In this document: positions 41,101 through 60,987 of the stretch, piece by piece
Layout: each line of letters begins with the position of its first letter
Position numbering within the stretch: the first letter of the stretch is position 1
Virus record (IMG/VR): IMGVR_UViG_3300047550_001947
Coordinates: 1 to 63,558 of that record
Length of the DNA stretch: 63,558 bases
Source: a virus
Lineage: Duplodnaviria; Caudoviricetes
Strand: one strand, 5' to 3'
Program-made: the position numbers and the translations under genes
Notes under the pieces: generated by a model
Seen by the model: only the letters and a program-made list of their open reading frames with translations
Told to the model about the DNA's origin: nothing
Databases searched by the model: none

Positions 41101-42924
41101 TCTGGCCTTAACCATATCCTCACCAAGTTTTACTTGTACAAGTAAGTTCTCTAAATCAGGTTCAGAAAAAATCTTGTTACCATTTTGAATAGCATCATTT
41201 AATTCTGAAGCTATTTTATTTATTCTTTCATCTTCTTCCTGTACAGCTTTCTTATATTCTTCAGGATTTCTTGCTGAAAGATAATTTCTCTTTAATGTAT
41301 TAAAGCCACCTCTGGCTGCACCAGTTGTTATACCAGCTAAACCCCCCATTAAGAAACCAGAAAGAAACACTTCTGCACCTTGTGCTGAAGCTTGATTCTT
41401 TAAATTCTCATAAGCATCTGCTAGATAAGTTACTATACCACCTGCTTCAGGTGTATCATATATTCTATCATAATAATCCTCAGAAGCACCGGCTACAATT
41501 TCCTGACTAAGTTCCTGTAAACCTTCTGTAAGATTTTTAGAGAAATAAGATTTTGCAAAAGAAGCATATGTTTTAGGACTCTTTAAACCACGGATACTTT
41601 CTACAAAAGCATCTTTAGCAGTCATGGTTTCAAACTTACCTGTACGCTCTACAAATCTTGTAACCTTACCAGATAGTTTGGCCTCCTCTAATATAGCAGC
41701 ATCACTACCAGTAATAAGATTCTTTTTACCACCCTTGAATAAATTATCAAAAGTAACAGCATTAGTAAGAAGAATTAAAGGAGCATTTATTAAACCAGTG
41801 GTTGTACCAGCATCAGAAGCAAGTTGATAAATTCTATCCAACTCAGTCTGATCAGGATACTTACCATTGTTTTCTATATATTCATTAATGTGACGATCAA
41901 TAAAATCATTCTTTACTTGACCACCCTCTAAAGCAGATTCACTTGTAGCATATGAAATTTGCTTCATATCTAAAACAAAATCACCAACACCTCTTACAGT
42001 ATTTGCTAATCCAATTACTGGACTCTCTGCAGTTAATATACCTTTAATGTTTACTAAGGTTTTTGGAATAAGTGCTTCCGCTGCAGACTTAGTAAGATTT
42101 AAAGCTCCTTGTGCAACCTTTGCGGCATCAATTGCTTTAATTGTATTGTATGCTTGTCTTGCAGTGTTAGCATCAAACAATGCTGAAATAGACCTCACTG
42201 TTTGTGCAGTTTTAGCTGTACCCGCTGCAACAGCTGCAGGTAATGCAGCACCTTCAGATAAAGCTACAGCTCCTGCTAATAATGCTTCAGTTGCTAAATA
42301 ATCAGCAGCAATACCAGCAATAAATCCAGATTGTAAAATTAAATTAGAAGCAAAACCAGATACACCACCTCTAGTACTACCACTTTCAGCCATGATTTGA
42401 GAAAACTCTCTAGCACCAGTTTCATCTGTCATAGAGAAGTCTCCACTTAACATATCACCTAAACTTCTATAACTAGACTTAACTACAGAAATACCTAATG
42501 CAGGTACTGCAGCAGCAGATCTAAATACATCTTCATACCAAGATCTATTCTGATTATAGATTTGTTCATTATTAATATTTGGATCAAAACCTAACTTATA
42601 AAAGTTATCTTCATCATCATAGTATCTTTCAAAATTACTTTTTTCAAAACCCGGTTGGAAGAACTTACCTTTAGATCTTTGAAAAGCTATATCTCCTTCT
42701 GTAATAGGAGAAGCCTTTACCTGTTTAGCTACATCAAAAGGATTGTTTGGATCATATTGTATCTCAACACCTCCGGGTATACCAGGAGTAGTTAATGTTG
42801 GATCATACGGTACTATTTGATTAAAACCCGGTTGTAAAGAACCGCTTATTGAAGAACCTTCAAAATTAGAAGGTACACCTGGCTCAATTCCTGGAGTAGG
42901 AATAGTATTCTCTAATTCTTCCAT
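29185..42924 (-). CDS. Giant virion RNA polymerase (crAss-type two-barrel) with zincin protease domain and N-terminal hydrophobic region
   Basis: 4579 aa; RIPSQ...SGADFDIDKLY (DxDxD at 32476-32490); KADAQ; HEAFH (36958-36972) with downstream EEYLAD. Confidence 0.9.
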   Translation of the reverse strand: MEELENTIPTPGIEPGVPSNFEGSSISGSLQPGFNQIVPYDPTLTTPGIPGGVEIQYDPNNPFDVAKQVKASPITEGDIAFQRSKGKFFQPGFEKSNFERYYDDEDNFYKLGFDPNINNEQIYNQNRSWYEDVFRSAAAVPALGISVVKSSYRSLGDMLSGDFSMTDETGAREFSQIMAESGSTRGGVSGFASNLILQSGFIAGIAADYLATEALLAGAVALSEGAALPAAVAAGTAKTAQTVRSISALFDANTARQAYNTIKAIDAAKVAQGALNLTKSAAEALIPKTLVNIKGILTAESPVIGLANTVRGVGDFVLDMKQISYATSESALEGGQVKNDFIDRHINEYIENNGKYPDQTELDRIYQLASDAGTTTGLINAPLILLTNAVTFDNLFKGGKKNLITGSDAAILEEAKLSGKVTRFVERTGKFETMTAKDAFVESIRGLKSPKTYASFAKSYFSKNLTEGLQELSQEIVAGASEDYYDRIYDTPEAGGIVTYLADAYENLKNQASAQGAEVFLSGFLMGGLAGITTGAARGGFNTLKRNYLSARNPEEYKKAVQEEDERINKIASELNDAIQNGNKIFSEPDLENLLVQVKLGEDMVKARKSFDEKVFHDLKDMSRFNSVYTALQTNKFDFVIKKIEDMKQMTGAELKQAFGLADSVTDEEARKVLDVTIDRAYQVKEQYEQFSGYKNPFNPNKYFPNTPEGITQKIQELINFKGFEEAKKTAVFSLHGLEQAKKRMTDLTKSYANIASVAELNYSDVAATLSMDSIDNEINLLNAEIEMSKDTTDPALTKTINNKKKKLKALESLKKNLERVKDVTDPTEVRKTTYLKKAFTDYMTVLTEEKGTFLTPKDINEAYRIFTDYYALNKDKADFTNLLSSLYDPENFANLVQRESLLVAARSKNFKDYFTKAFKKYSETSKVGLFLKDLAKTGFVIDLKYLKELDENNFNGLKNAILNDPDIKFRDLNSNKLFGVDDVRYNTIKSFVDKFENSVKPDSEVKPTATEAGPANSYGTQSTDDIEEGTEDIEYASDFANNILRRLYDDYLKSLKEADIPVSFEEFVSSKKANSVMSAVSQLESAYDNIVDSTKPPFEEWLRINARTPIVFDVLDKNNLTFSDISIQKRDENQYITTSLEEGESVISQGYNGVFITKVTATAVEGSEGVDIYFVKVNDGTLAIDAAGKPNELLNFDFDFYEDLTKAEKAQKAIGDYLANNKKQFIFDNVPLVNGQIISDTKNNEYIVLSYPSEIAAGSNLKLKNVKTGAILPPVKSFQGFKLERAPIEKKAYTSRFNSTSIIDKAWGKRNKEANESQEAANIRLSNFLRDTPAEDLLNNLSIRFSNNNKSPERYAYLKLGEEKENFSFGFFTDPYTIALVYNGEEIGYLPNPTSTAFLDSQGNPIPYDTINADRVKQVFYLKSGAYNQAVADIKSSYKNKIALLNYLKSKLGKDTSVEIPYSDLKKVANINIGLGSYEFLSRDEERPKFSQVNYNTINGGIYVIDRKIKYKNGSVTTEEGSPITDIDIDSLESTIKEVNDARYNKKGADALLKYGRYVAAVKLPNGKIRFVELTTSSLSNEELNSLANSIKERIELTKKENLNEDGTPKAQEYNDIWNEENIGDKLFIALPLKDRGKFLDIYVSPNGSLVLDFVNKNSRTSPIQRKKIIDNPDFNDFPGLLSLINNAIKEHDNQAKNPINKMDIALTGKSFKATLPKSIDTTQVLEMESSVGVNVVKDISVYVDMLEQASDVQAQPLLPKIPDAVLDVDISNIDFSSAPVTANANPELLRGIAPVNPATPAVTEPVVETPLEKTKEPTQVNSAETLNKLINAQKSIPQQIKQLQAQADSKTDEVRKVLLAQRLAEKGELTVADKREIRTQAENSPEVLAIKGQIEVLEKSIGLKVVDAGYTESDITNLTEFLNWVENNLPDFISVEDLKTFKNNLYKEGKTVGAFISSLSNVAGNVEVNGIIYTSASSPFKYHEAFHAVFRLLLNDKQISRYLAIAKKELRDQLRKEGKSFSLAKEEMRLLHPLYAGMSESQLEERMYEEYLADKFEAWKKNNKTETSHVNKSLFAKIVELIKKLFSRFTKNELQSLFESIDAGKYRNSKVVTNRFTDSPFDISEPVLKAIKIGTEVIEDSTFAAEGESNLIKVDKYLPEQEGTRLAASVAAIYNNKLKDADKQTNTDELLDSVLDSYEELYDPDLEQYADLDTPVLNKLKEYKAIFSKTENREILKEAVREHLAILSIKENNEQDVSDDATDELGERGKQNYTEGAASVGGFGSLSKFLRSFISTVTYQATDDFGNTQFLDGTPYIQSVDGSTVYNGILKAIAGSEDIYEIIEKLNLFKEKNFESGKVIQEFFNETGITFDDEGNADLSNVKNSYLFQSFIKGFGQYAVDYLFINKDLKKQIALIISANRKDAGKVQFDQWSQAYASVYESKVTPELKGKAKLVLTGIKSAMSPTKKYTDDELIVQTNKLSTALMENLGISLSPMYLAYSISNNLNTSNLTPHQLKLITLYSGASPITIEDIDILSGLIDSGENPFINLQYETTINPETGEVVEETEILEGGATTRLYNIAKVNAIFDESVYATSWKNAEGQLVYVHQLPSYHLVKINEIKKTGGIEELLKDPFLENNYLLKNPKFLASLDLITVKRIDGQKVSSLTETGEGEAIENKELEVNRREGTTYGSFSPEEFITSLIDLYSEGGVQKRGGLEFGTSTHLIRVLEASSTGNVVNLPVIKAAAKVSGKNTLSDEAKNAILGFVEQEYNRIQRVANGEFTDEIYDFNTGKMRGLTLFKTGKLLSEDFKNELEAQAQENLPLTENQKTQIKNEVTKSMLDDVNFLLELLDQDNILKVKDGKVKESALAAFVTKGFEINKPSKKDDKEETTKKSNKLIKVEDTLKNSVYNLKKNDYAYNLLQIYVNDFINTTAINQLMHGDHAISFKDPVDEIKRAKGSNATGANIESVITDERLGIKHEFKTAHIVTISDPKFTAKFAGGKKDKADAQMWMTVKALRYTLFGLGKLSPIQAELLNKIENGEEVTGDFFFGDKKTKGAVSFNAATNSIKLVYFDGQTYVKTSGFVLTKEFTSYGKNFDKALPGKEELHKLRQTLEVYEADKETVSLAVPASASKGKKINVASDINSITDSNFIETKTKYWRLQLENPSNKVVITDPTQPKQILTAEQDDETIVNFMGKDITVGDLKKIYQDASINRVKVNYLGKRNAIFTLDSGLEEVKRSIAAGSVTPKLAAFQKYAIETLRSSAGDAQMIEFFELDEQGEPKYDLNSPITIDKFVELFLSYFSKGVLSEKVPGHAVALVSDYGVKQLKKVLELDENGQPKRWEIVRVEEFKLNPSKYGTPKEYSDPENRTFTGLKVDDYYIDDLRHNVPEYDKDGNITGYFTEFIMPAHFKELLSFIKPGDKIPDVVAKMFGARIPSQDKHSAVALKLVDFMPVYYGSSAIFPQELIEISGADFDIDKLYIVIQEWLVENGKFKAYGTGTSKTERFNQFVKYQFSKNKEFRKSYSEFYNALKKERADEIEALQDLDIDVSDSDLFDTYIDKKEVVKAALQSLGLPSTADEYNNKVQKLGYEPYQGALNNIIVNDRIALLNNSAMVTAKEGEIPKAFQVATVQPLINIVKSFTERFPELKDQLEEGKYNVDTLLGKYYAFRNNKEGARNIGPAVNALLVYSLLNTNNITIRKARFFIDENGDEIELGNLRFKLNGKEFDSYAETKAYNPETGKYDGERIFYILSALTSAMTDNAKERLAAKLNLNINSLGIVANMIAQGVSLEDSLLFINQPAIREFYKRLQKNKSSYAEEKDRMKGQAKIIGELLEEYSIEDVPSDISTEDLEQGIRTNNANIQAAVLNNFKTLIAQSEAFMNVSTILKVNKGLPKDLTEFDEIYNKAVDLGIEMNDKEFENSNIPFDIRRLLNSSNNTFGFNFTVYREIKSLIGSVMLNRTPVVNRMREIIIANTEVNSKDRKNFNKSLDQNLLSFFAIKAYVNLLKTGGYKRALASLNNGMVYDQTASTLPDNMENVTDVVLNLRKLAPKNYFVNKFLFAITAANRSNKDGINKVEFNNWTKLSRLQLNKIQYSFMELYNNEITRPYAIDLFHYLLVKDGGQFKSGSFIRIMPNFMFDLILKSSSSAVMALKGKANDTIVKKTFGANLNQLYNEFVRGYLQNTNTTFFTKTVKDISKNNEIKEFKQELGIKGNVSSPIVKSDDKILINVFKNTSFEREMIPLGDVSNYKGDEFIVDENGQYQVVQPMLSLPGPSKLTEEGKKMYRYNLKYLRASGFVLQTKNDKTQIGFPLVIKSVQYVMGNRNTVYYKLTSIKRDRTEEKENLADLIQPGDMYAFGVSAEYEKFTPIGSKKQFAAGFVIPGNVPSRTDIFKDRKNKDVTSNPNGIPDLNNIDFDQGIEKQLSNVDFSSAPANISNTLASNNISFKTEGKKIVYEKDGKPFETTAKSPEELAKSLTPKTTEETLDNIDQLVTAAPPMAFDPSIGANIKAQAEYPVLNNFYTEQLSDEERNKIREGMGIKTFVNFVQQYKEFVNTIGGDQNSFVEQIKKCYL

Positions 42925-42943: not shown

Positions 42944-45508
42944 TTATTGAATATTGTCAAAGTTACTTAGGAGAGTGTTAAAATTATATATATTCAGATT
43001 AGGATCTGTATATACCTCAATCATATTTGTACGGGGATTAAATGCTGTTCCAGAAGCATAAATACTCTGATCAGGTTTTTTAGTAAATGTAACATCAATT
43101 CCAGCATTTGGATTCATATATCTATATGACCCAGAAGTATTTAATATCACTTCTCTATCACTAGTGTTTATTCTTTGAGAAATATAATTTGTAGCACCAC
43201 TTGTAGGTATAATAGCTGTAATACCTTTTGCAATAACTTGATTATATAAATCTTCATTGCTTTCTTTTAGATTCTTCATTATCTGACTAGATGCTGAAGG
43301 TCTAATTATTAATGCTTGATAATCACTACTACCAAGTGCACGTCCCTGATAACTGTATGAAATAGTTGACTTAGAAGCTCTTGCATCACTAGCTAAAGTA
43401 TTTAATAAAGCCCTCATTTCTGAGTTATCTTCTATCGAATTAAAATCTCTACCACTTGCTTGAGCAATATCTGCAGGAGTTCCAATACCAATTCTAGAAT
43501 CACTATTTAAAGCATCATCTAATGCACCTTTAAATCCAGATGTAACCTTAGACATAGGTTTAGAAAAATCTGCAACACCGCTTACACTATTAGAAATATA
43601 CTCACCGGCAGCACTTCTTCCAACAGGTTTATATCCAGTTTTATTTTTTGATAAATCAGTGTACATATCTTGATAGTCATCCATAAAGTCTTCATAATCA
43701 TCCATAAAGTCTTCTTTATCAATGACTATATTTTTTGCTCTAGCTGCTTCACTAGCAACTTTATATGCACCATTAGCATCTCTTAAACTACCATCTTTTG
43801 CAAAGACATAATCTAAAAACTCAGGAACATATGCCTTAGAAGCTCTCAGATTAGCAGCAATTATTTTATTATTGCTTGAAATAGCAGATATATTACTATA
43901 TGCTAACTGTCTACTATCATTTACTCTACTAATAATTCCAGATAAACTTTTTAATAAACCAGGATCAGCTTTTGTAACATCTAATACTTGATTAAATATA
44001 TTATTTAATGTTGTAAGACCTACTTTGTTTGATTGAATATCTTGAATAGTAAATCCAGAACTTTTTAATATTTTTTCTGTAGCTGCTCTAATACCTGTAT
44101 CATTAGTGTTAAGAAGAGTATTCATTAACTCATAAGTGTTAGCAGAAAGATTAGCCCAGCTATTATTAAATTCAGCTCTATCTCCAACTGTAGCATCATC
44201 CATTGAAGCTTCTGTCTTTACAGTGCTTGATGAAAAATCATCAAATCCTCCAAGTTCCATCATCTTCATCTCTCTTTCAAAGTCCTGTTCAATTTTTTCT
44301 TTCTTTAACCAATAAGAAAAATCCAGGGCTTTTTCAAAACTTATTTGTTTAAATGGATCAGCCTTTACAGATACTTGATAATCTTTATAAGCTTGTACCT
44401 GTGTTGCTTTAGATATTTCATTAGAAATAATACTTGAAGCCATAGAAGATCTGCTAACTCTTGATAGCATATCTATATCTTCATTACTGATAGCATCAGA
44501 GATTTGATTTAATCTTTGTTCAACACCAGTTATAGCATTCTCATATAAATTTTTTCTTGCTACTATTTGACTATATTCAGTCTGTTCTTTTTGATTAAGT
44601 CTACCACCTCTATTTATTTTAGATTCATAGATATTAACTTTAGCATCTAATAGATCATATTCAGATTTTAAATCTTGTAGTTTATTTTCATCATTAGCTA
44701 CAAACTTATCTGCACTACCTAAATAGTATTCTGTTTTTGCTTGATTAATATCACCATCATATTTAGATGAAGCAATCTGCATTATATCATCCATTGATTG
44801 TACATATGCTAGTTCACTTGCATAATCTTTAACCATTGGATCTCTACCTAATGTTTCTCCTAAAAATTGAGATATAACATTTACAGATTTTGGACCACCA
44901 GTAGTAGTAACTAAATAATTACCTCTCTGCTCTTCTATTTTTATATCTTTAAAATCATCTCCAACAAGCTCTTTAGCTTTTGCCATTATATTTACATAAG
45001 GTACATACTTTGGCAAATTCATTTTATAAGCTGAATCTGGAGAAGCTCCTTTAAATTCTAATAATCTATAATCAATACCTCTAACACCTTCAGCCCAGTA
45101 TTTACCTGCTATTTCTGCATTAACAGAGTTTCTAAAACTTTCAGCTCTTTGTTTACCATCTTTACCAGCTTTTGTAAACATTACATCATACTGCATTTTT
45201 TTATCTTGTACAAAAGGTTCAAACACCTGTTGTGCAAGCTCAACATTTTTTGGATCAGAAAGATCCATAGATGTTATTTGCTGTATATTTTTTTGAGCAT
45301 TATTTAGAAAGTTTTTTCTGCTTTCAATATTCTCATCTCTTGTAAGATCTGCATTAATGATACTTCCATATACACCGCTTAATTGATCTATAGCACTATT
45401 ATATCTTGCCTGTTTAGTGGCAAGTACACTATTGAGAAAATCAAAATTAGGTTTATAAGGCTCTGCCTTTGGAATATAATCAGTTAAACCTTGTATAAAA
45501 GTAGCCAT
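42944..45508 (-). CDS. Putative virion cargo/ejection protein
   Basis: 854-aa helical/coiled-coil protein (PYKPNFDFL...KQARY) directly upstream of the RNAP, as in crAss-like gene order. Confidence 0.65.
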   Translation of the reverse strand: MATFIQGLTDYIPKAEPYKPNFDFLNSVLATKQARYNSAIDQLSGVYGSIINADLTRDENIESRKNFLNNAQKNIQQITSMDLSDPKNVELAQQVFEPFVQDKKMQYDVMFTKAGKDGKQRAESFRNSVNAEIAGKYWAEGVRGIDYRLLEFKGASPDSAYKMNLPKYVPYVNIMAKAKELVGDDFKDIKIEEQRGNYLVTTTGGPKSVNVISQFLGETLGRDPMVKDYASELAYVQSMDDIMQIASSKYDGDINQAKTEYYLGSADKFVANDENKLQDLKSEYDLLDAKVNIYESKINRGGRLNQKEQTEYSQIVARKNLYENAITGVEQRLNQISDAISNEDIDMLSRVSRSSMASSIISNEISKATQVQAYKDYQVSVKADPFKQISFEKALDFSYWLKKEKIEQDFEREMKMMELGGFDDFSSSTVKTEASMDDATVGDRAEFNNSWANLSANTYELMNTLLNTNDTGIRAATEKILKSSGFTIQDIQSNKVGLTTLNNIFNQVLDVTKADPGLLKSLSGIISRVNDSRQLAYSNISAISSNNKIIAANLRASKAYVPEFLDYVFAKDGSLRDANGAYKVASEAARAKNIVIDKEDFMDDYEDFMDDYQDMYTDLSKNKTGYKPVGRSAAGEYISNSVSGVADFSKPMSKVTSGFKGALDDALNSDSRIGIGTPADIAQASGRDFNSIEDNSEMRALLNTLASDARASKSTISYSYQGRALGSSDYQALIIRPSASSQIMKNLKESNEDLYNQVIAKGITAIIPTSGATNYISQRINTSDREVILNTSGSYRYMNPNAGIDVTFTKKPDQSIYASGTAFNPRTNMIEVYTDPNLNIYNFNTLLSNFDNIQ

Positions 45509-45560: not shown

Positions 45561-48500
45561 TTACTTCTTCTTAGATCTAGCAGCTGCTGTAGCAAATGCA
45601 TCCTTATTATCACTAGTATCTCCAGTAAATGCTTTAAGCATAGCAATTCTTAAAGGATTCTTATCTTGTTCTTCAAGATCAGTGTAACCTGGAAACATAC
45701 TTTCAAGTCTAGCATCTAAGTTACCAGTCTGAGTTTTTGGTCTAAGTTTAAGTGCAGCTTCAGGATCATACTGTACAGATAATGAAGATGGACTAATATA
45801 ATACTGTGGATATAATTCATTTAATAATCTAGTGTTAAATAAATTATCCATAGCTCCAACTATATTCTGTTGTACAGCTTCTCTACCTTGTGTTCTAGCA
45901 TTATCATATTGTTGATTAGCTATAGCTGTCTTAGTATAGAAATCATCAGCAAATAGAGCATTCTTAAAGTTAGCTTCATTTGCTAATTGCTTATTAGCCA
46001 TTTCAAATTGATTAGCTACACCAACATTAAGATTATTATACCTACCCATAATATTAGCAGCATTAGCTAAACCCTTACCCTGTACATCAGAGTATCTTGC
46101 ATTAAATGCTTGTGGTCCGGTAAACTGTGCTAAATTTTGTGCAGCAATATTTGCCATCTCTGCATTAGCGGCTATCTCTCTTGTAGGATCATAATACGTA
46201 GGTTCAATATACTCAGGAGTAAACTGCACCTGTCTTGGTAAATATTTATTTATACCATACAAGTTTTGCATAGCTCCCACTGTATTTACTATATCCTGTG
46301 GGTATAATCCAATTGGTCTAGATCTATCTGGTCTTTTAGCAGAAAGATCTACATTTTGATTCATCTCTCTAATATCAGAACCCGCTTGTTCTTTTTTACG
46401 TTTTGGTGGTACATCAAACAATACTCTTGTTTCTGTGTACTTACCAGCTTTTGAATCTAATGCATTTGGACCTTTTTCAATACCTTTATCAAATCCAATC
46501 ATATTAACATATCTTGATGCTTCTTCAGGTGTATAACCAGCATTTTTAAATCTGTTATACATTTCTTTATTATATTTTTCTTGAGCAGCACCAACTTCAG
46601 TTGGATTATTCCAATTTATTTTTTTACCATACCATCCCCAGTTTTTATCAGCACTAGCTTTATCAAATCTACCAAATGTTCCAGTGGTACCTTTTTTCTG
46701 TAAAGATTCTACATAGTCTTCAGGTAAAATAAGATTTGGAGCCATAGATTTTAAAACTTTCTTCTCCTCATCTGTATAAGTTTGAATAGCTGGTTTATCA
46801 TTATCTTCTGCTGTTCTAACTCTTCTACTTCCTGGTATTTCAGCACCTGTTTCATCTAAAAGATATTTTTCATTACCATCATAATATAGATATGCTTTTT
46901 TTCCTGTTTTTTTACTAGTTCTTTCTTCAATAAAAACTTTAGAATTTGGATTACCTTGAGTTGTTTGTTGATTTTCTTGATCTGTATTCCACATATTAAT
47001 GCGGCCTGACCAAGTAGCATCAAAAGCAGGATTAGGATTTTCTAGAGTTCCGCCTTTAGTTGTTTTGTAAACATCTGCTTTTTTAGCATCTATAGTTTGT
47101 AAAAAAGAAGGATCTGTCATCATCTTTTCTATTTCAGGTTTAAACTCATTCCATTCACTTGTAAAGTTCTTTGGACTATTTAATTGTGATAAAGTAATTT
47201 TTCCTGCTGCATATAATAAAAAATCTTCTGGGCTACGACCTGTATTATATATATAATCAGCCATGCGTTCTTTTACACCTGCTGGGTATTGTTGAACTTT
47301 AGGAAGAAAGTCTTGTTTAAAAAAAGCTATAGCTTCTTCTATTGATTTTGGGTCACGAGAGTTGTACCCCCAGTTTGATAAACCATATGCATTTTTTTTA
47401 TTTGGGTCATAACCTCCTTTAGTTGCTTCATACTCAAGAATCTTTCTAATCCACGCATCATCGCTTTCAGGAGTTGAATTATTTAATCCATTTTGAGCCA
47501 TAGGTATACCACCATATTTTTTAGAATATTCATCATATATATCAGTAACAGGTTTTTCTTTTATTTTAGTACCTGAAGTTGTAGATTTTCTAGGAACATT
47601 TATATCTACTTGTGGCATCTTATTATAAACATCAGAAATAGCTGGATTAGTTTCAGCTGCTTTTTGTAAAGCACTTGATGAAAAATCAACACCTGTATCT
47701 ATTGCCTGTTGTGTATCTCTTGGTGTAAATCTATTTAATAAATCTACTTGTTCTTCTTCAGTTAAAGATCCAGGATTACTTGCAAAATAAGTTATTGCTG
47801 CTGCAGGAGTAAGACTTTTAACAGCATCCACAATACCTGGATTACCACTTATAAAATTAGAAAGTTTATTAGAAGTATTATATAATTGAGTTTTTCCCAT
47901 ATTTAACATTTCAGGTAAACTAGCTTCTCCTATAAGAGATTTTATAGGAGTAGACAAAGATGTTCCTAAATTTCTTAAACCACGAGCAACTGGACTTGCA
48001 AATGCTAATGAAACTGGATCAGTTCCATATCTTAGCATAGTAGTCATAGGACCTTCTCCATAATTTCTAGCATAACTAGTAGCCATTGGTTCATACTGAC
48101 CAGTTAATTGATAATTAATTATATTATTCCATTTAAGTGGGTTTATAAAATCATAGTTTCCTATCTTACTACTATTATATTGCTCACGAGCTTTTATAAA
48201 CTCATCTATAGAAGGTAAAGAAATATTAGGATTAACTGATTTCTTATAATTAGCATATGATTTATAATCATTAAAAATATCATCAGGATTCAAACCTTTA
48301 GAAGTTACATCACCTAGAACACTCATACCTATTTGAGCCATAGGTAAGTTACCATAGTTGTCCATCATATTCTGCTGGGATTGATCCGGCATAAAGCTCA
48401 TAGGATCTAATCCTATTTTCTCCATATATGGATTTGCAATATCTGGAATACCTTGAGGAAATCCTTTTTTAGATTCTTGTACTAAAGCAAGCTTACCAAG

Positions 48501-49670
48501 ATTAGAAATATATTTATCTGCATTCATAATTGCAGTTTTCTTTCTTAGTATATCTTGATTATCATACAAACCCTCTCTTAAGTTTTTATCATTAAGATTA
48601 AACTTCTTAGAAATTTCAGCGGGAGTATAACCACCCTTCTTAGCTTTTAAACCAAAGCTTGCTAAAAGTTCTGGATCTTTAATCTTCATAGCTTTTGTAT
48701 CTGAATAAATAAAACTATTTGGTGTAGCTTTATCTGGTCCTAATGGTGTACCACCTTCATAGTGTCTTTTACCACCAATTTTATAAAATTCAGGAATAGT
48801 AGAGTTCTCACCTGTCTTTACAAGTGTCTCTCCTTTTTCTGCTTCAATTACTGACAAACTTCTAGGATCAGCTTGAAGAGTTTCATTATACTCTTGCATT
48901 GGTTCCTGTTCTTGTCTCTGAGAGAACATGTTCATCATGTAAGCAGAGTTACCATATAACTGGTTAACCGCATCCTTATTTTGAGTACCACCATAAGCAG
49001 CCTGTGGTAATCCTGTAATTTTAACTTTTCTTTTCATTTCTCCACCCATCTGGGCAATTTTATTAAACTTACCATAAACATATTCATCTGGTCTAAACAT
49101 ACCAGTGTTTATATCATAGTCTCCTCTATTTCCAGAAATAGATTCTGGTCTAGAAAGATACATATTATCTGATAAAAATTGATCTTTAAATTTTCTTTCA
49201 GCACCTCTTTGATCAATTTTACTAATAGCAGAATTAACAAAAGCTAACTCACCCATTAACATTGGACCAAGCATTGAAAAAGGATTATTAGAAATATTTG
49301 GAATAGACTTATTAAAGTCTGAAGGCATTGGAGTTCCAGGAGCATATGCTGCATTAGCATCAAATCTTGTACCTGCAGGAGCAGCCGTATTTTGTTCAGC
49401 TAAATTTGCATAATAATCATCAGCAGTAATAGGACCCATTCCTGAAGGACTAAGTGACTTAGTAGGATTTGGATTCTTAGTACCACTAGTAATAAATCCA
49501 GGTTGCTTAACACTAAATGGATTATTAAATGCAGTTGGTCCAGCCGGAGGTGTACCAAACATATTCTGGTTCTTATACCATTGTTGCTGCTGTTGTGGTG
49601 TTAATACAACAGAAGGAACATTTCCAGCCTGAGCTTTTGGTAAGCCTTTGATTTTAATTTTCTTTTTCAT
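45561..49670 (-). CDS. Modular virion protein with GH108-like peptidoglycan hydrolase domain
   Basis: EAEKGE...GGKRHYEGGTP block; ILEYEATKGGY...SNWG...MADYIYNTG; repeated AQxG/xxxGG linkers. Confidence 0.65.
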   Translation of the reverse strand: MKKKIKIKGLPKAQAGNVPSVVLTPQQQQQWYKNQNMFGTPPAGPTAFNNPFSVKQPGFITSGTKNPNPTKSLSPSGMGPITADDYYANLAEQNTAAPAGTRFDANAAYAPGTPMPSDFNKSIPNISNNPFSMLGPMLMGELAFVNSAISKIDQRGAERKFKDQFLSDNMYLSRPESISGNRGDYDINTGMFRPDEYVYGKFNKIAQMGGEMKRKVKITGLPQAAYGGTQNKDAVNQLYGNSAYMMNMFSQRQEQEPMQEYNETLQADPRSLSVIEAEKGETLVKTGENSTIPEFYKIGGKRHYEGGTPLGPDKATPNSFIYSDTKAMKIKDPELLASFGLKAKKGGYTPAEISKKFNLNDKNLREGLYDNQDILRKKTAIMNADKYISNLGKLALVQESKKGFPQGIPDIANPYMEKIGLDPMSFMPDQSQQNMMDNYGNLPMAQIGMSVLGDVTSKGLNPDDIFNDYKSYANYKKSVNPNISLPSIDEFIKAREQYNSSKIGNYDFINPLKWNNIINYQLTGQYEPMATSYARNYGEGPMTTMLRYGTDPVSLAFASPVARGLRNLGTSLSTPIKSLIGEASLPEMLNMGKTQLYNTSNKLSNFISGNPGIVDAVKSLTPAAAITYFASNPGSLTEEEQVDLLNRFTPRDTQQAIDTGVDFSSSALQKAAETNPAISDVYNKMPQVDINVPRKSTTSGTKIKEKPVTDIYDEYSKKYGGIPMAQNGLNNSTPESDDAWIRKILEYEATKGGYDPNKKNAYGLSNWGYNSRDPKSIEEAIAFFKQDFLPKVQQYPAGVKERMADYIYNTGRSPEDFLLYAAGKITLSQLNSPKNFTSEWNEFKPEIEKMMTDPSFLQTIDAKKADVYKTTKGGTLENPNPAFDATWSGRINMWNTDQENQQTTQGNPNSKVFIEERTSKKTGKKAYLYYDGNEKYLLDETGAEIPGSRRVRTAEDNDKPAIQTYTDEEKKVLKSMAPNLILPEDYVESLQKKGTTGTFGRFDKASADKNWGWYGKKINWNNPTEVGAAQEKYNKEMYNRFKNAGYTPEEASRYVNMIGFDKGIEKGPNALDSKAGKYTETRVLFDVPPKRKKEQAGSDIREMNQNVDLSAKRPDRSRPIGLYPQDIVNTVGAMQNLYGINKYLPRQVQFTPEYIEPTYYDPTREIAANAEMANIAAQNLAQFTGPQAFNARYSDVQGKGLANAANIMGRYNNLNVGVANQFEMANKQLANEANFKNALFADDFYTKTAIANQQYDNARTQGREAVQQNIVGAMDNLFNTRLLNELYPQYYISPSSLSVQYDPEAALKLRPKTQTGNLDARLESMFPGYTDLEEQDKNPLRIAMLKAFTGDTSDNKDAFATAAARSKKK

Positions 49671-51364
49671 TAATCTAAGTATTCAACTGTGTAACCCATA
49701 TCTATAAGCTTCTGGATTTCATCATCATGTAGTTCTAAAGTGTCACCCATGTTAACACCAGCACCACCCATTTGCTTCTTCCAGCCTGCAGAATTTCTAG
49801 CAAAGTTAGCACGTCTAACTTGTTTTGCACTATAATCTTCTTTATTTGCAAGTACATGTTTAGCAAATTCTTGTACTCCCATACCAGCTCTATTAGCAGA
49901 CTCGGTAAACTTACCTTTGTTTGCAGGATTAATATAGATACCACCTTTTTCATATTTTTGACCACCGCACATATAGCAAGGCATTCCACCTTTCATCATC
50001 TCATATACATTAGTTAGATCCATTTCACCACCATACATATCTCCACCATAAGCCATATTAGCCATGATTTTATTTTGTACATAATCAGGTAAAGCTTGGA
50101 ATCCAGCATTCTGTGGTTCACCACCTTTTTCCCAAGTACCTAATCTTTTATGCCAGTATAATGGAGAGAAAGGATCTGTTGCTTTTGCTGAATCTTTACC
50201 ACCCATTCTGTTCCAGAAATTCTTCTTACGTTTTTCAGAACCATGTTGACTAAAGTCTTTCATACCAGTATAACCGCCATGAACTACTTTATACTTATCA
50301 CCCTTCTTAGCAAGTACCATCCATTTCTTACCTGGTCTGGTTGATTTCTTCTTTACACCAACTTTGTTAAAGCCCATGTTTTTATAACGCTGAGGAATAC
50401 CACCATTTTTCATTTCCTCCATTTCACCCATAGTGTATTCATCTTCTTCTTCCTCTTCTTCCTCACCTTCTAAGTCAGGATCATATTCTTGACCATACAT
50501 CATATAATCACTTACAGCATCTATATAATCATCTGCCATAGTAATCTTACTATTAACCCATGGTTCTAAATCTGATTCTACATTTATAAATTCTTTAAGC
50601 TTGTTAGCTTTTTCCATTATAGACATTAACTGCCCTAAAGCCATACCACCATCAGGCTCTCCACCTTTTTGCATAATTAATGGAATAGTAATATCTCCAC
50701 CGGCAGCCATTTGTGGCACCATAGGATTCATATATGATAAGCTTGGATCACCACCATAAGCATATCCATACTGATCCATCATATCTTGTTTACCAGCAGC
50801 TTTAAATCTAGCTTCAGCTAACCATTGGGGCATCTTACCACCATCTTTAAATCCAGAAAGTAATTTAGCAATACCTGCAATAGCTTGAGGATCCATTCCA
50901 GAACTTTCACCACTAGCACCTTTATCTTGTGGTTGCATAGCTTGGCTAACTTTCATAGCATCAGTGAAAGATCTTGTAGCATTTCCAAATGCATTCTCTT
51001 TAGCATTGTCTACAGCATCTTGATAAAATGCTTGCATATTTCCCATAGCCTGAGTATCATATTGCGGATAAGCAAACATTTGCTCCATTTGCATTCCATT
51101 CTGAGCTTTTCTATATCCTCCACCTCTGCGCTTGTATTCTTTTACAAGCCATGCAGAACCATAAGCTGAAGGCCACCTATCAAATTTAGATTTAGCTTCA
51201 GATTTAACACGGGAATATAGTGAAGGATTAGTGGGTACATTACCACCTTTCTTCATTTCTCTAGCTTGAGGATAGGCTTGAAAGAATGCTTCTTCTGTAG
51301 GAAACATCTTATAGAATTCCTGTTCATTCTTTACACCAGCCATTTTTAAAAATTTATCTTTCAT
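49670..51364 (-). CDS. Modular protein of small domains separated by x-x-x-G-G motifs
   Basis: MKKGG, FKDGG, YAYGG, MAAGG, MQKGG, MKNGG, WEKGG, MAYGG, MMKGG, YEKGG, KQMGG within 564 aa. Confidence 0.7.
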   Translation of the reverse strand: MKDKFLKMAGVKNEQEFYKMFPTEEAFFQAYPQAREMKKGGNVPTNPSLYSRVKSEAKSKFDRWPSAYGSAWLVKEYKRRGGGYRKAQNGMQMEQMFAYPQYDTQAMGNMQAFYQDAVDNAKENAFGNATRSFTDAMKVSQAMQPQDKGASGESSGMDPQAIAGIAKLLSGFKDGGKMPQWLAEARFKAAGKQDMMDQYGYAYGGDPSLSYMNPMVPQMAAGGDITIPLIMQKGGEPDGGMALGQLMSIMEKANKLKEFINVESDLEPWVNSKITMADDYIDAVSDYMMYGQEYDPDLEGEEEEEEEDEYTMGEMEEMKNGGIPQRYKNMGFNKVGVKKKSTRPGKKWMVLAKKGDKYKVVHGGYTGMKDFSQHGSEKRKKNFWNRMGGKDSAKATDPFSPLYWHKRLGTWEKGGEPQNAGFQALPDYVQNKIMANMAYGGDMYGGEMDLTNVYEMMKGGMPCYMCGGQKYEKGGIYINPANKGKFTESANRAGMGVQEFAKHVLANKEDYSAKQVRRANFARNSAGWKKQMGGAGVNMGDTLELHDDEIQKLIDMGYTVEYLD

Positions 51365-51369
51365 CTTTA

Positions 51370-54300
51370 TTATTTATATTGATCTAACCATCCACCATAT
51401 TTTTTATTTTCAGGATAGTACTCTGTAGTATATCCTTTTCCTTGAGTTATTTTTGCTTTAGTTACATCTAAATTATTTAAAGCTTTCCATTCATCATACT
51501 CTTTTTTAGTATTAAATAGCTTACGAGTTCCATCTTCTAAAACAACTCCATATCTATAATCTGAAGCCATTCCTACACCAGTTGGATACATATCCATATC
51601 TATATTAGTTGCTACTAAAGAAGGTTTAGTTGGTTCTACTACTGGAGCTGGTAAAATAGTTTCAACAATAGGAGTAGAAGTAACAACAGAAGTAGGAGTT
51701 TTTACTACTTTAGAAATTGGTTCTAATTTTTTATATACTTTTGGTACTGCTGGTTTTCTATAGATTACAGGTTGAACAGGTCTTGCATAAATAGGATTAA
51801 CTGGTATGTTATCAATTAAAACAGAATGTGTTGGTTTTATTTCTGGATATCTTGATACAAGCCTATTTCCACTATTATCAATATATTTTGTTTTATTTTT
51901 ATAGGGAACTATATTACTTCCAACAAAAATATTAGGATATTCTCTTACAGGTTTTGTTTGTGCATAAAGAAAAGCACTATCATTATAAGCTCTTAATCTA
52001 GGATCATTTAGATTAGATGTATATATAGGAGCTCTTACACCACCTATCTGATACTCCTCTAGCCAACCACCATTTTTTTGCTCTGGTAATTGTGCAATAC
52101 CTGCTGCACCAATTCCTATAGGTGCAGTTGCCCAAAGTCTATTAAACAAAGATGCTAATTTTTTAGGATCACTTTCTATAACATCAAGAAATTTAGGATC
52201 TATAAATTTTGCATTCTCTGGTTTTTGTATAATCCTTATTATATCTGCAGCTTTTTCAGGAGTAACCATTACAGATTGTTCTGGTGTCATTCCCAGAAGC
52301 TGTCTTAATTCCATAACTCTGGCATGTACTTCAGTTGGATCTGCCAAATAACCTAAATTAGCATTTTCTGTACCCATTACTGTAGAAGGATTTATACCTT
52401 GATCTCTTAAACTTTGCCAGTTTTTATTAATCTCTTTAATTTTATCTGGATATAACTTTTTTATATCATCAAGCTGACCAGACTCTCTTAATAAAAAATC
52501 AGAAGTCCAATCATGAGTTCCTTCATGAATAGTAGTAGATCTTCTCATTGGTTTAGACATACTGAGATTTCTACTAATCCAACTACTGTTTAATTTAGGA
52601 TTACTAAACATTTCTCCTATTGATCTAGAATATGGATCTCTACGGTGTAAATAACTTACACCACTATTACCAGAATGTATATGGGGCTGGTTACGAACAA
52701 AAAGATCTTTAAACTGTTCTGAAAAAGGATATTCTTTTGAAAGAGGTGTAAATGATTTAGCTTGTTCATAACCTAAACTAAATTGATCTTTTAATATATT
52801 ATTTCTTTCAGGAATCCAACCTAAATCAGTATCAATTTTAGCTTGAGTTATAGGATCATCTATCCAATTTTTTAACCATGCATTTCCTTCAGCAATTGCT
52901 TGTCTATTTTTATTACCACTAAGTGCTTCTCCTAAAAGCTCACGACTTAAATAACGAATATCAGTTTTATTTAAATTAGATAAACTTGCTGAAGGTTGTA
53001 TATCAGGAACTTGACTAAATACTATAGATGGATTATTTGCAAATTGTTGAACAGCTCTATACTGAGCAGGAGTAGCTCTTAAAAATTTAGATAAAGGTTT
53101 GATTGCCCCCTTCATAGTTGAAACTCCTGGATATAAAGTTAATGCATTTATACTAGCATCTAATAAATCAGAACCGGCTTCTTGAAAGTTTCCTTGTGCT
53201 AAATTCTTTATAGCAGAAAGTTGATTACCAGTTAAATCAGTTGCAGCAAATGCATACGTTGCAGGATTAACTACATCTAATACATAAGACATAGGACTAG
53301 CAGAACCTGTACGCTCTTTTTCTTGTTCTACAAATGATGCTGCCTTTTTAGCTTTTTCATAATTACTTTCAGGAGTTCCTGCATATATAACTCCAGATCT
53401 TTTTGCCGCAGCTTCTCTAGCTCTTTGATCAGCTATCATAGCTCTTGTAGCATCAGAAACATTTGTGTTAGGGGTTACTACTCGTGTATTATCTGATGTA
53501 CTCCTTACAGGTTCTTGGTAAGAAGTTGTAAATGCTCTACGTGATGGAGGTGTATAACTAAATCTACCACTTTGATATTGATCTAACCACCCTCCGTATT
53601 TTTTTTTAGTTTTAGATACTTCATCTTCAGCTGTATCAAAAGCATTTAATATTTTCTGCCAAGGAATTGCTTTGTAAGCAGTTTTTATTGAGTTAGGATC
53701 TAAGTATTTAAGTTTAACAAATTTACCTAAAGCAGGAACAGCACCAAACATATCTAATGCTTGACTCATAGATGGTAAAACTGAATTAGATTTTTTCCAT
53801 TCATTGTATGCTCTGTTTGCATCATCCCAAGAAGTATATCCTGTGGGATCAAAAAACTCAGCAATATTTTCCATAGTAGAATCTTCTTGACCACCAAGTT
53901 GTCTACGCTTATGGTTATAATCTATTCTTTTACCAGATGTCTTCTCTCTTTTGAATTTAGCTTTCTCTGCAGATGACATCTCTGATGTAGTTTTAGGGGT
54001 GGTTTCATTTACCCGCTTTTTAGGTCTGCATGCAGGATAAGGTCTTGAACCTTTTTCTTTACCTGATCTTCCACAAGGTTTACCAGTCTTTACATCTGTC
54101 CACTCTTCAGCAAACCATTGTGTAAGACCACCCTTACCAAACTCTTCTAATACACCAGTTCCTTTTTTATAGTTCTTAGCAAATCTTCTAGCTTGTCTAT
54201 CATTAGAAAACTCAATATACTCACCAGTTTGATTTGCATAATTATAAGCATTATCTCCTAAGTATTGTAAACTACCATCAGGCATCTGCACAACTGTAGG

Positions 54301-54669
54301 ATATACACGACCATCAGCACTTTCCATAAAGTGTGTAGCAGGATGAGGCTGACCAGGTATTATTATACTTGGTGTATTAGATTGATACATTCTTTGAACA
54401 AAGTTTAAATCTTTATTCTGATTAAGAATTTTATCAATTTTTCTTTTAGACATTCCACCAAATTGCATTTGTGGATACTCAGTTACATAGTTACCAGGAA
54501 ATGTATAATCTGCTCCTGGCATCATCATCTGACTATTACCTAAGTTATCTACTCCAAGGACTGGATACCCCACCCCTTTCATTGTAATAGAATTAGAGGG
54601 TATAATAGTAACCTCACCAGGGTATGCCCACTGGCCAAGAGAGGATACTATAGGTTTCTTTTTACCCAT
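51370..54669 (-). CDS. Modular virion-region protein with zincin-like domain and xxxGG linkers
   Basis: MQFGG, FGKGG, RQLGG, KKYGGWLDQY (twice), QKNGGWLEEYQIGG; HEGTH...YLADPTEVHARVMELR. Confidence 0.7.
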   Translation of the reverse strand: MGKKKPIVSSLGQWAYPGEVTIIPSNSITMKGVGYPVLGVDNLGNSQMMMPGADYTFPGNYVTEYPQMQFGGMSKRKIDKILNQNKDLNFVQRMYQSNTPSIIIPGQPHPATHFMESADGRVYPTVVQMPDGSLQYLGDNAYNYANQTGEYIEFSNDRQARRFAKNYKKGTGVLEEFGKGGLTQWFAEEWTDVKTGKPCGRSGKEKGSRPYPACRPKKRVNETTPKTTSEMSSAEKAKFKREKTSGKRIDYNHKRRQLGGQEDSTMENIAEFFDPTGYTSWDDANRAYNEWKKSNSVLPSMSQALDMFGAVPALGKFVKLKYLDPNSIKTAYKAIPWQKILNAFDTAEDEVSKTKKKYGGWLDQYQSGRFSYTPPSRRAFTTSYQEPVRSTSDNTRVVTPNTNVSDATRAMIADQRAREAAAKRSGVIYAGTPESNYEKAKKAASFVEQEKERTGSASPMSYVLDVVNPATYAFAATDLTGNQLSAIKNLAQGNFQEAGSDLLDASINALTLYPGVSTMKGAIKPLSKFLRATPAQYRAVQQFANNPSIVFSQVPDIQPSASLSNLNKTDIRYLSRELLGEALSGNKNRQAIAEGNAWLKNWIDDPITQAKIDTDLGWIPERNNILKDQFSLGYEQAKSFTPLSKEYPFSEQFKDLFVRNQPHIHSGNSGVSYLHRRDPYSRSIGEMFSNPKLNSSWISRNLSMSKPMRRSTTIHEGTHDWTSDFLLRESGQLDDIKKLYPDKIKEINKNWQSLRDQGINPSTVMGTENANLGYLADPTEVHARVMELRQLLGMTPEQSVMVTPEKAADIIRIIQKPENAKFIDPKFLDVIESDPKKLASLFNRLWATAPIGIGAAGIAQLPEQKNGGWLEEYQIGGVRAPIYTSNLNDPRLRAYNDSAFLYAQTKPVREYPNIFVGSNIVPYKNKTKYIDNSGNRLVSRYPEIKPTHSVLIDNIPVNPIYARPVQPVIYRKPAVPKVYKKLEPISKVVKTPTSVVTSTPIVETILPAPVVEPTKPSLVATNIDMDMYPTGVGMASDYRYGVVLEDGTRKLFNTKKEYDEWKALNNLDVTKAKITQGKGYTTEYYPENKKYGGWLDQYK

Positions 54670-59363: not shown

Positions 59364-60325
59364 TATCTCCAGCTATTATAATTGTAACTGCGAAACATAT
59401 CATAATAAAGCCCGTACATAGCTTTACGGTTCATAGCATGCATCTTCTGCATCTCTAAGAAGTCAGGAGTGTTTACAAGAGATAAAGCATTGTTTCTAGC
59501 AGCTCTATATCTCTGCTCAATAAGATTTAATTTTTGAACTACATCTTCTCCATTCATGTATAAATTTTCAAGAATACGCTGCTTTAAAGCATACTCATAG
59601 TATTCATTCACTGTAGGATTATCCAACACTAATAAATTACCTTCTTCATCTTCTAAAGCTCCTTGATAGTTTACATACACTTTTCCAGAATCTAGATTCA
59701 TCATTAAGAATCCATTCTTTAAAGTTGCAAGAAAAGGTGACTCCCATCTTGTATTAGGACAGTCACAGGATATAGTTTTAGAATTTGAATTTAATTTAAT
59801 TGGGGCCCTTACTTCATAGTTCCTTGTTTCATACATAGTCTTCTGGATAATCTGATACGTAGTACCACATTGTGTAAGACATGTATTACAAGTTGAAGGA
59901 ATAGTTGGAGTGGGTACAACATTAGTTACGCAGCTAGGACATGTTCCTGGAATAACTGTAGTTGTAGAAGTACCACAGTTATTATTACCACAGCTACAAG
60001 GGTCATTACACTCTTGTGATGGAATAACAACTTGATCTTCTCTATGAGTTCCAGATATAGCCGGTTGAGTAATGCTATACTCACCACAAAGCAATGCATA
60101 GTTTAATACATAGAAATCATCAGGAAGTCTAACTTTTCTATGGCTAATATCTAGCACTACTTGCTTGGTCATAAATATTCTCAAGCCTAAATCATAGTTT
60201 ACTCTCTGTACAACTTTGATTAATTGCTGAGGCTCTATCATGTTCTCTAATGCATACATAGAGAAATCTACAGAGACATCCTCCAATAATTCATTAAAGG
60301 TCCTATATTTTAATTCTGTAAGCAT
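59363..60325 (-). CDS. Putative tail ring/tubular protein with Cys-rich insertion
   Basis: Tail-module position; C-terminal GKVYVNYQG...DEEGNLLVLD...YYEYALK. Confidence 0.6.
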   Translation of the reverse strand: MLTELKYRTFNELLEDVSVDFSMYALENMIEPQQLIKVVQRVNYDLGLRIFMTKQVVLDISHRKVRLPDDFYVLNYALLCGEYSITQPAISGTHREDQVVIPSQECNDPCSCGNNNCGTSTTTVIPGTCPSCVTNVVPTPTIPSTCNTCLTQCGTTYQIIQKTMYETRNYEVRAPIKLNSNSKTISCDCPNTRWESPFLATLKNGFLMMNLDSGKVYVNYQGALEDEEGNLLVLDNPTVNEYYEYALKQRILENLYMNGEDVVQKLNLIEQRYRAARNNALSLVNTPDFLEMQKMHAMNRKAMYGLYYDMFRSYNYNSWR

Positions 60326-60987
60326 TATCTATTTGGATTAATGTTGTCATCACTTAGATCTGTAGGAATTGACAACCTAGCTCCTAGATCTTTAATAACC
60401 ATGGCTTCGGCTTCAGCTAATAAAAATTCAGGAACACCAATAAGGTTATCCTGCCTTCTTATACATTCATTAACTTCACCATCTGCAACTTTCTCAGTAA
60501 AGATACCTTCAATCTTTATAGCATCCCATTCTAAATTAGGCATGTATAGATATCCATTTAAATACCAAAAGTATTTAAACTTGTTATACTTAAAGCCTTT
60601 AGTTTTAGTCATGCTAGTGTACTGACCGGGAGTTGTAATGTACAACTCTTCAGAACCATCAATAGATGATACAGTTCTGATAAGAGGTCCCCAGTAACCT
60701 TCCATAAAAGTGGGAAGCTTCTCTTTTGTTCTTCTAATAGTACATCCTGACTTTATACCAGCGCAGCATGCTTCTATCTTATCCACTTCAATAAGTTCTA
60801 GACAGTCCATTGTCTGCCATATAGAACTAAACTTCATCAACTTATTCTGAGAATCTTGTCTCCTCATTAATAGCTGAGAGTACTTGATTAATACACTATA
60901 TACGTATCTGTCAGTTAAAAAGGCATCTTGTCTTACTGCCTTTAACTGATTTTTTATACGTGAGATAGTTGTTCCAATTGTTACCAT
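60325..60987 (-). CDS. Putative tail ring/adaptor protein
   Basis: Tail-module position; LIEVDKIEACC...RTKEKLP...YFWYLNGYLY. Confidence 0.6.
   Translation of the reverse strand: MVTIGTTISRIKNQLKAVRQDAFLTDRYVYSVLIKYSQLLMRRQDSQNKLMKFSSIWQTMDCLELIEVDKIEACCAGIKSGCTIRRTKEKLPTFMEGYWGPLIRTVSSIDGSEELYITTPGQYTSMTKTKGFKYNKFKYFWYLNGYLYMPNLEWDAIKIEGIFTEKVADGEVNECIRRQDNLIGVPEFLLAEAEAMVIKDLGARLSIPTDLSDDNINPNR

Follow-up and report, generated by a model that had tools for sequence, protein, structure and literature searches.

In the human gut, phages of the order Crassvirales are more abundant than any others, while the cargo proteins they eject are still uncharacterised, and the structures of these ejected proteins remain to be resolved according to the accessible text of a 2026 paper (PMC13434306). 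In crAss001 the muzzle gene, gp44, is followed by the cargo genes gp45 and gp46 and then by genes for RNA polymerase (RNAP)-associated proteins, as far as the available part of the source describes it (PMC10172136). The product of gp45 is a virion cargo protein whose portal-bound domain is Pfam crAss_CARG1 (PF25725): the model has residues 425-552 as a single chain that binds the portal on the capsid side, and it places residues 214-245 in the tail, on the opposite side of the portal (Bayfield et al., 2023; PMC10172136, in part). In the accessible text of that article no word beginning with cleav or proteoly, nor the word protease, occurs, and no motif is mentioned. Here we describe a comparable locus in a tailed virus, the IMG/VR record IMGVR_UViG_3300047550_001947, the whole of which (63,558 bases, GC content about 0.32) was analysed and is called the window; CheckV estimates its completeness at 53%, about half of a crAss-like phage genome. 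Three adjacent genes, for P0003, P0002 and P0001 (1099, 564 and 1369 amino acids, aa), would encode cargo proteins built from small modules, and a short motif that we call the connector, with the consensus [LM]-P-x-[MFY]-[QAK]-x-G-G and the variant [MK]-A-Q-x-G, recurs in them where modules meet.

Several other systems invite comparison. Polyvalent proteins, as Iyer, Burroughs, Anand, de Souza and Aravind are said to have described them in 2017, reportedly combine many disparate domains delivered together with DNA; zincin-like peptidases were reportedly predicted to process them, and a conserved connector motif is said not to be part of that description. Likewise, several unrelated domains share a single polypeptide in the cargo proteins of the window, gene position suggesting their delivery, and none of the marker domains of polyvalent proteins (LPD families, MuF) was found in them. 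Adenoviruses and African swine fever virus (ASFV) make virion-internal proteins from precursors, and the consensus of adenain, like that of the C39 leaders, has a hydrophobic residue at P4. The connector shares with the sites of adenain, of ASFV pS273R on pp220 and pp62 (abstract of PMC10308890) and of C39 peptidases a Gly-Gly with an upstream hydrophobic residue, but this residue stands at P5, one residue further from GG; the analogy with adenovirus and ASFV is a loose one. Drobysheva et al. (10.1101/2020.03.07.982082) suggest, in the part of their text that is accessible, that the fused proteins of the RNAP block are 'likely cleaved', with a possible role of a zincin-like domain in this. The window has such a fusion, of 4579 aa, but their proposal concerns the RNAP block, which carries zero connectors. 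In the literature searched, which comprised few subscription papers and no supplements, we found neither a connector motif nor the processing of cargo described for Crassvirales.

The identity of the three genes follows from their neighbourhood. On the minus strand the order of transcription is ring 2, ring 1, muzzle, then the genes for proteins of 1099, 564, 1369, 854, 4579 and 1765 aa (Table 1), so that ring and muzzle genes immediately precede the three genes, in the same orientation. With these genes upstream, and given the gene order of crAss001, they therefore occupy the cargo slot, and their assignment as virion-region, cargo-slot proteins of a crAss-like phage is supported by this predicted arrangement. 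Neither crAss_CARG1 nor crAss_CARGO2, the domain of gp46, had a match in the window up to E 10, and a comparison of the three proteins with PDB sequences returned nothing relevant. The closest annotated relatives of the muzzle protein, in Leptolyngbya phage Lbo-JY46, crAssE-Sib and Cellulophaga phages phi4:1 and phi17:2, are merely 23-26% identical to it, so that we are dealing with a divergent lineage, known here from uncultured contigs alone.

The first-pass annotation of this DNA had proposed that pentapeptides ending in GG recur in the three proteins at borders between unrelated modules, as maturation-protease sites or capsid-loading tags. The pentapeptides it named are all present in the genes to which it assigned them. 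Plain GG is in excess solely in the 564-aa protein (18 against 7.6 +/- 2.5 expected, a count reached in 0 of 2000 shuffles); the 1369-aa protein (8 against 7.1, p 0.43) and the 1099-aa protein (7 against 4.7, p 0.19) are at chance level, as are four neighbouring proteins (17 against 15.0, 3 against 2.4, 11 against 8.6 and 0 against 0.5). The context of GG is another matter. In the cargo proteins of 80 related loci, GG tends to be preceded by Met, Phe or Tyr at -3, Gln, Ala or Lys at -2 and Tyr or Glu at -1, further upstream by Pro at -5 and Leu or Met at -6, with weaker preferences after GG. The context pattern [MYFWH][QAK]xGG was chosen post hoc from these same data, which inflates p-values in the source loci. 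With this proviso, it occurs seven times in the 564-aa protein (0.37 expected; 0 of 5000 shuffles), twice in the 1099-aa protein (0.11 expected, p 0.008), once in the 1369-aa protein (0.20 expected, p 0.18) and nowhere in five neighbouring proteins of the window (9082 aa).

The same contrast extends to the relatives. Across the 80 loci the pattern is found 618 times in 210 cargo open reading frames (ORFs; 187,618 aa), against 48 in one shuffle (12.9-fold), and it is at chance upstream of the cargo genes, both in 674 ORFs (15 against 23) and in 80 muzzle proteins (19 against 14), as well as in 40 homologues of the 854-aa protein (1 against 1). With sites grouped at 40% identity, the motif is matched by 243 of the 904 GG clusters from cargo proteins and by 10 of the 286 from controls. 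A fairer test than the source loci comes from a distant set, less than 60% identical to them, obtained by dropping 7 of 149 representatives that reached at least 60%: the remaining 142 hold 259 motif sites, against 24.7 +/- 5.2 and a maximum of 42 in 200 shuffles (10.5-fold). Unbiased k-mer enrichment in the 149 representatives was dominated by a shared zincin module and is uninformative on the connector. The context motif is specific to cargo-slot proteins, lineage-wide, at 10-13 times above chance. Connectors also occur in arrays, 3-16 aa apart. At the motif, Gly codon pairs (GGT GGT 45%, GGT GGA 25%, GGA GGT 9%, GGA GGA 6%) are near the expectation from a Gly codon usage of 61% GGT, and selection on the motif therefore acts at the protein rather than the DNA level.

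Where the connector stands is as telling as how often it occurs. Among relatives the length of the first cargo protein varies between 253 and 2158 aa, the muzzle protein staying at a steady 1515-1849 aa, and the homologues of all three cargo proteins are mosaic, modules of the query matching at quite different positions. Taking the three proteins together, 16 of 45 homology breakpoints are no more than 8 aa away from a GG, where 8.0 would be expected (p 0.002), and GG ranks first of 141 dipeptides for breakpoint excess. The proteins differ in this respect: the counts are 6 of 12 for the 1099-aa protein, 9 of 12 for the 564-aa protein and 1 of 21 for the 1369-aa protein, where stretches that close to a GG make up 8%, 43% and 9% of the length, respectively. 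Borders in the C-terminal two thirds of the 1369-aa protein are unrelated to GG. The idea that the motif sits at domain borders defined by hidden Markov models (HMMs) stands in part, as 8 of the 12 ends of six Pfam or PHROG matches lie within 11 aa of a GG, but four of the six matches also hold an internal GG. To be sure, a GG is not always a border: those of VVHGGY, KRRGGG and YEGGT are inside conserved modules.

Natural protein ends in relatives place the joints more finely. In 10 distinct relatives the first cargo protein stops with ...YNHKRNK, 3-5 aa before GG 259-260 of P0003; in five, the second cargo protein starts at the residue right after GG 40-41 of P0002; and in 24 the N-terminus of the third is MKRKVKIxxLPxAxxGG, 1-4 residues beyond GG 209-210 of P0001. 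This survey set aside four coincidences in the C-terminal part of P0001, far from GG, at least one of which (locus L008) is an ORF truncated where its locus stops. The conserved N-terminal module of P0003 (N-module) behaves alike. Among 65 distinct copies, GG lies 45-80 aa past the GQW core in 55 and at +58 to +61 in 44; the AQxG variant listed at the outset is real, since of the 10 copies that lack GG, 8 carry [MK]AQxG at its position. Where the N-module is internal (26 distinct cases), GG is found exactly six residues upstream of the core in 19, the other seven having an NG[SK]-like sequence. When P0002 is aligned with 22 homologues, the large insertions stand at connectors: extra sequence of up to 200 aa immediately follows MAYGG in 13 of 22, up to 96 aa follow CGGQ in 21 of 22, and one homologue has 312 additional aa past QMGG. 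As judged from these comparisons, the connector marks to the residue the places where modules have been inserted, deleted, fused or split among relatives. The swappable modules of the first-pass annotation are thereby borne out, with GG at points of gain, loss, fusion and split; so is their diversity, since unrelated basic, acidic and HExxH modules make up the cargo-slot proteins and separate modules have separate relatives.

How far does this resemble described cargo? Like P0003, crAss001 gp45 has the muzzle gene as its immediate upstream neighbour. Its GGs are in excess (21 against 13.2, p 0.012), but the connector context is weaker in it (2 against 0.34). It shares with P0002 a module set between two GGs, P0002 470-538 resembling gp45 369-428 (hhalign probability 67%, E 5e-5); in the same alignment gp45 GG 427-428 is matched with the QMGG junction of P0002, and gp45 KDGG with P0002 EKGG. 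GG motifs stand a few residues away from points where the resolved segments of gp45 start or stop: the chain 425-552 contains GG 427-428, 434-435 and 447-448, and the segment 214-245 starts 4 aa after FSAYGG. The motif is weaker in other Crassvirales families, with three occurrences in gene49 of Rudgehvirus jaberico (0.08 expected), one in cr127_1 (0.15 expected) and 0 in gp46. Another comparison is with gp040 of Cellulophaga phage phi4:1 (NC_021788), two genes past a muzzle homologue and annotated in its record as a virion structural protein from tandem mass spectrometry. It has an N-terminal module ending ...PNFQAGG (41% identity, E 2e-8), four motif sites against 0.15 expected and 14 GGs against 7.1; the differences are a muzzle protein only about 25% identical and another module content.

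In P0003, as in its relatives, the N-module ends with a connector (...EYPxMxxGG), and the sequence past this GG is unrelated between relatives. With its three GGWLxxY tails, two of them internal, P0003 gives the impression of three units placed one behind the other; in the DNA, the repeated tail peptide corresponds to three dispersed copies of 36 nt that are 69-86% alike. Its HExxH module has 238 homologues at E <0.001, which occur at any position in proteins of 118-2507 aa. The HExxH with a downstream Glu that is typical of zincin metallopeptidases is present, H171, E172, H175 and E236 of the module (715, 716, 719 and 780 of P0003) being invariant in 41 sequences, and searches of Pfam, NCBIfam and PDB sequences gave zero matches to a known zincin family. 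A Suoliviridae 'peptidase' resembles the cargo module in its C-terminal half only (hhalign probability 70%, E 4e-5). In relatives the module ends with a hydrophobic stretch and ...QK[KN]GG, followed by one of four continuations: WLNKYK and a stop; WLDxYQDGG and a further module; an N-module; or a 25-aa tail, ...ELxxxEIxxLxxQGYxxExx. Five related near-complete genomes differ in this respect, two having the full cargo HExxH module, two a tail piece and one nothing of it. Most cargo proteins 1 and 2 of the related loci (L001-L080) end with one of two tails, GGxTxWLNKYK or ...ELxxDEIxxLxxQGYxxEYLD (alternatively ...GGEVEFL); regular expressions counted 17 distinct ends of the first kind and 38 of the second, the latter with one variant undercounted. 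The conserved tails GGWLNKYK and ...ELxxDEIxxLxxQGYxxEYLD are the more likely candidates for docking or loading peptides.

P0002 is the richest in connectors, and the net charge of its segments alternates (e.g. +12, -20, +12, -7). The first-pass annotation was right that the DNA of the region is not tandemly repeated, save for a GAA/GAG run at 50438-50471 that encodes poly-Glu, residues 299-308, in an acidic module of this protein. A DUF5754 match covers residues 339-387, and phrog_220, 'minor head protein and DNA pilot', matches residues 340-406 only; the flanking GG 321-322 and 414-415 are invariant in 23 sequences at 37-70% identity. The DUF5872-type domain also exists as a stand-alone ORF of 56 aa in the podophage Roseobacter phage CRP-2 (L081, 2118-2288), and in a conserved protein beside the small terminase gene of the T4-like Synechococcus cyanophage S-BM3 (L082, 1521-2534). 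Both DUF5872 and DUF5754 are mentioned in the accessible parts of papers on algal giant viruses and polinton-like viruses.

The module at residues 476-534 of P0002 recurs in four Crassvirales families, and in Suoliviridae it is a stand-alone ORF of 73-75 aa with a leader and GG. There the gene order is terminase, portal, HExxH peptidase, 73-75 aa ORF, acidic scaffold-like protein and major capsid protein, as in uncultured phage cr10_1 (L083, 4709-8966) and cr50_1 (L085); the small ORF consists of a 17-19 aa leader ending YK[ND]GG, then the module, and the HExxH gene, between portal and scaffold-like or capsid genes, has the usual place of a prohead protease. The arrangement recalls the capsid-targeting leader of T4, which the prohead protease removes. 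The Suoliviridae peptidase was found in 0 of the 5 relatives.

The connectors of P0001 are confined to its N-terminal part and to residues 717-728. As to a possible relation of its most conserved core to the portal-bound domain of crAss001 gp45, the profile of the core gave only 7% probability against gp45, and BLASTP of P0001 against gp45 found no significant match. A guess that residues 735-900 form a GH108-like lysozyme had no support from Pfam or NCBIfam and was dropped; a lead to LPD23 from the ESM Atlas (feature score 0.84) was likewise rejected, the HMM of that family giving no match.

What could such a connector be for? A bead-on-a-string architecture of swappable cargo, in which one portable connector would join the beads, is supported by the module exchanges described above. 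As for the connector itself we lean, tentatively and somewhat short of even confidence, towards a short linear motif that would act, uncleaved, as a joint or a recognition motif. The three genes would encode internal, ejected cargo proteins of a crAss-like podophage, whose beads would be the 70-aa N-module, DUF5872/DUF5754-type mini-domains, acidic segments, the HExxH...E module and short C-terminal tails. The connector, assumed to be flexible, would remain uncut in the virion and serve as both joint and recognition element; each bead would be packed, unfolded and threaded in turn through portal and tail, and new beads could be added with neighbours undisturbed. We take it to be uncut because its probable homologue in gp45, GG 427-428, lies within a continuous crAss001 chain; we prefer a multivalent motif to cleavage sites because connectors may be only 3-16 aa apart; and this reading is favoured because Peptidase_C48 and Peptidase_C39 were found in 0 of the 5 related near-complete genomes (of which four are 90% complete or better; the search did not extend to C5, C57 and C63) and the cargo zincin is complete in only two. 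Other observations weigh against it. The gp45 alignment has a probability of 67% only, and the GGs of gp45 misfit [MYF] at -3. Conservation lies mainly N-terminal of GG, from -6 to -1, and is weak after it, which is the pattern of a protease site; internal copies of the C-terminal tail are followed by a second GG, as if cutting exposed the tail; and the Suoliviridae leader-GG ORFs lie between an HExxH peptidase and scaffold-like genes, in the usual prohead-protease slot.

These last features are those expected of the main alternative, that of processing sites, which we hold to be less likely than not, though not far behind the first reading. The cargo proteins would then be polyproteins, and an enzyme, either a zincin of the phage or a protease of the host, would cleave them behind or inside GG, whether still in the procapsid or once ejected; mini-proteins would thereby be set free and the tail peptides become accessible. 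Besides the specificity N-terminal of GG, the internal tail copies with their second GG, and the Suoliviridae leader-GG ORFs that adjoin an HExxH peptidase in the head module, this would account for the minimal junctions, in which a natural end, ...YNHKRNK and stop, becomes ...YNHKRRQLGG and the next module. Potential enzymes are at hand, in the HExxH...E module of cargo protein 1 with its invariant H, E, H and E and in a second HExxH in the 4579-aa RNAP fusion, and cleavage of the RNAP block, with a zincin-like domain, has already been proposed (Drobysheva et al., 10.1101/2020.03.07.982082, in its accessible part). Cleavage would also explain how gp45 214-245 and 425-552 come to lie across the portal from each other, without twelve chains threading it. 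By contrast, the probably homologous junction at GG 427-428 (hhalign 67%) lies inside the continuous virion model of crAss001, the full cargo zincin is present in two of five related genomes (a tail piece in two, absent from one), and the C48 and C39 peptidases were found in none of these; 0 of the 17 GG positions of the RNAP fusion fit the motif, connectors 3-5 aa apart would yield tiny peptides, and crAss001 virion bands of 150, 270 and >300 kDa fit uncut large cargo (PMC6235969, whose accessible part leaves the band assignments unseen). A wider version of the processing idea strikes us as rather unlikely: connectors would be the cut sites of a dedicated cargo-maturation pathway of Crassvirales and related marine Bacteroidota phages, dicing polyvalent cargo into dozens of basic, acidic and enzymatic mini-proteins that end in GG or a docking tail and reach the host ahead of the DNA. 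If true, this would amount to the phage equivalent of the way adenovirus and ASFV process their polyproteins, and the crAss001 cargo protein seen in both tail and capsid would be two separate fragments. Improbable, in our judgement, is a passive origin, in which Gly-rich linkers simply tolerate in-frame fusions and the upstream residues hitch-hike with a few copied cassettes. Plain GG is indeed at chance in two of the three proteins, some GGs are within conserved domains (VVHGGY, KRRGGG, YEGGT), and many sites stem from few cassettes, the N-module end alone providing dozens; yet the same context appears in 243 sequence-distinct clusters, enrichment is still 10.5-fold in the set less than 60% identical to the source loci, unrelated preceding modules share the context with a fixed register to the next module, and GG 321-322 and 414-415 of P0002 are invariant in 23 homologues at 37-70% identity. 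A recombination signal in the DNA, microhomology driving cassette exchange, seems very improbable indeed: dispersed repeats of 19-36 nt do cover some connectors, e.g. TCACCACCATA, but Gly codon pairs are near usage expectation, the residues before GG vary in sequence and the shared DNA is mostly 6 nt.

The genes downstream of the cargo slot complete the picture. The 854-aa protein has no family match and zero connectors; in its more distant matching relatives its first 230-420 residues alone are conserved. From its motifs alone, the 4579-aa protein looks like a fused virion RNAP block, with zincin-like and RNA-polymerase cargo, which are separate genes in crAss001 and phi14:2. Searches of Pfam, PHROGs and PDB returned nothing for it, and PHROGs gave nothing for any of the three large proteins downstream. 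None of its 17 GG positions has the connector context. The region around its HEAFH is 84-88% identical in three of the five relatives and undetected in the other two.

Table 1. Genes and sequence features of the cargo region, in window positions
Feature	Positions	Strand	Remarks
Tail ring protein 2	60325-60987	minus	Pfam CrAss_Ring_2, E 2.5e-18
Tail ring protein 1	59363-60325	minus	Pfam CrAss_Ring_1, E 1e-11
Muzzle protein, 1564 aa	54669-59363	minus	Pfam crAss_MUZ, E 7e-33; context defining the cargo slot
Cargo-slot protein 1 (P0003), 1099 aa	51370-54669	minus	First gene past the muzzle gene
P0003 conserved N-terminal module, residues 1-72	54454-54669	minus	Ends ...EYPQMQFGG; 41% identity to phi4:1 gp040
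P0003 connector RQLGG, residues 256-260	53890-53904	minus	Ten distinct relatives end 3-5 aa before
P0003 internal tail peptide KKYGGWLDQYQ, residues 356-366	53572-53604	minus	
P0003 HExxH...E zincin-like module, residues 545-890	52000-53037	minus	HEGTH at 52513-52527; then hydrophobic stretch and QKNGG
P0003 tail peptide, copy 2 (internal)	52039-52080	minus	
P0003 tail peptide, copy 3	51373-51405	minus	True C-terminus of P0003
Cargo-slot protein 2 (P0002), 564 aa	49670-51364	minus	18 GG positions; alternating basic and acidic mini-modules
P0002 leader module, residues 1-41	51242-51364	minus	Ends MKKGG; five distinct relatives start right after GG
P0002 DUF5872-type basic mini-domain, residues 42-87	51104-51241	minus	
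P0002 first connector array, residues 195-245	50630-50782	minus	YAYGG, MAAGG, MQKGG, EPDGG; insertion hot-spot in homologues
P0002 basic module, residues 323-415	50120-50398	minus	Between MKNGG and WEKGG; DUF5754 match
P0002 second connector array, residues 430-475	49940-50077	minus	Insertions after MAYGG and CGGQ
P0002 module, residues 476-534	49763-49939	minus	Between EKGG and QMGG; also crAss001 gp45 369-428
P0002 C-terminal tail, residues 535-564	49673-49762	minus	...ELHDDEIQKLIDMGYTVEYLD; conserved cargo-protein end in relatives
Cargo-slot protein 3 (P0001), 1369 aa	45561-49670	minus	
P0001 duplicate leader	49620-49670	minus	True N-terminus of P0001
P0001 internal leader EMKRKVKITGLPQAAYGG, residues 211-228	48987-49040	minus	Directly after AQMGG; protein start in 24 distinct relatives
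P0001 most conserved core module, residues 229-450	48321-48986	minus	
854-aa gene	42944-45508	minus	After the three cargo genes
4579-aa gene	29185-42924	minus	HEAFH at residue 1985, DFDID at 3479
1765-aa gene		minus	After the 4579-aa gene

The pattern is real and wider than the first-pass annotation had seen, and the reading of the cargo as cassettes is supported. The connector gives a simple rule for parsing hypervariable cargo proteins into units, and it is a handle on how cargo is loaded and threaded. Module turnover at fixed joints suggests that these are fast-evolving, first-in proteins, a possible site of host-takeover or anti-defence functions.

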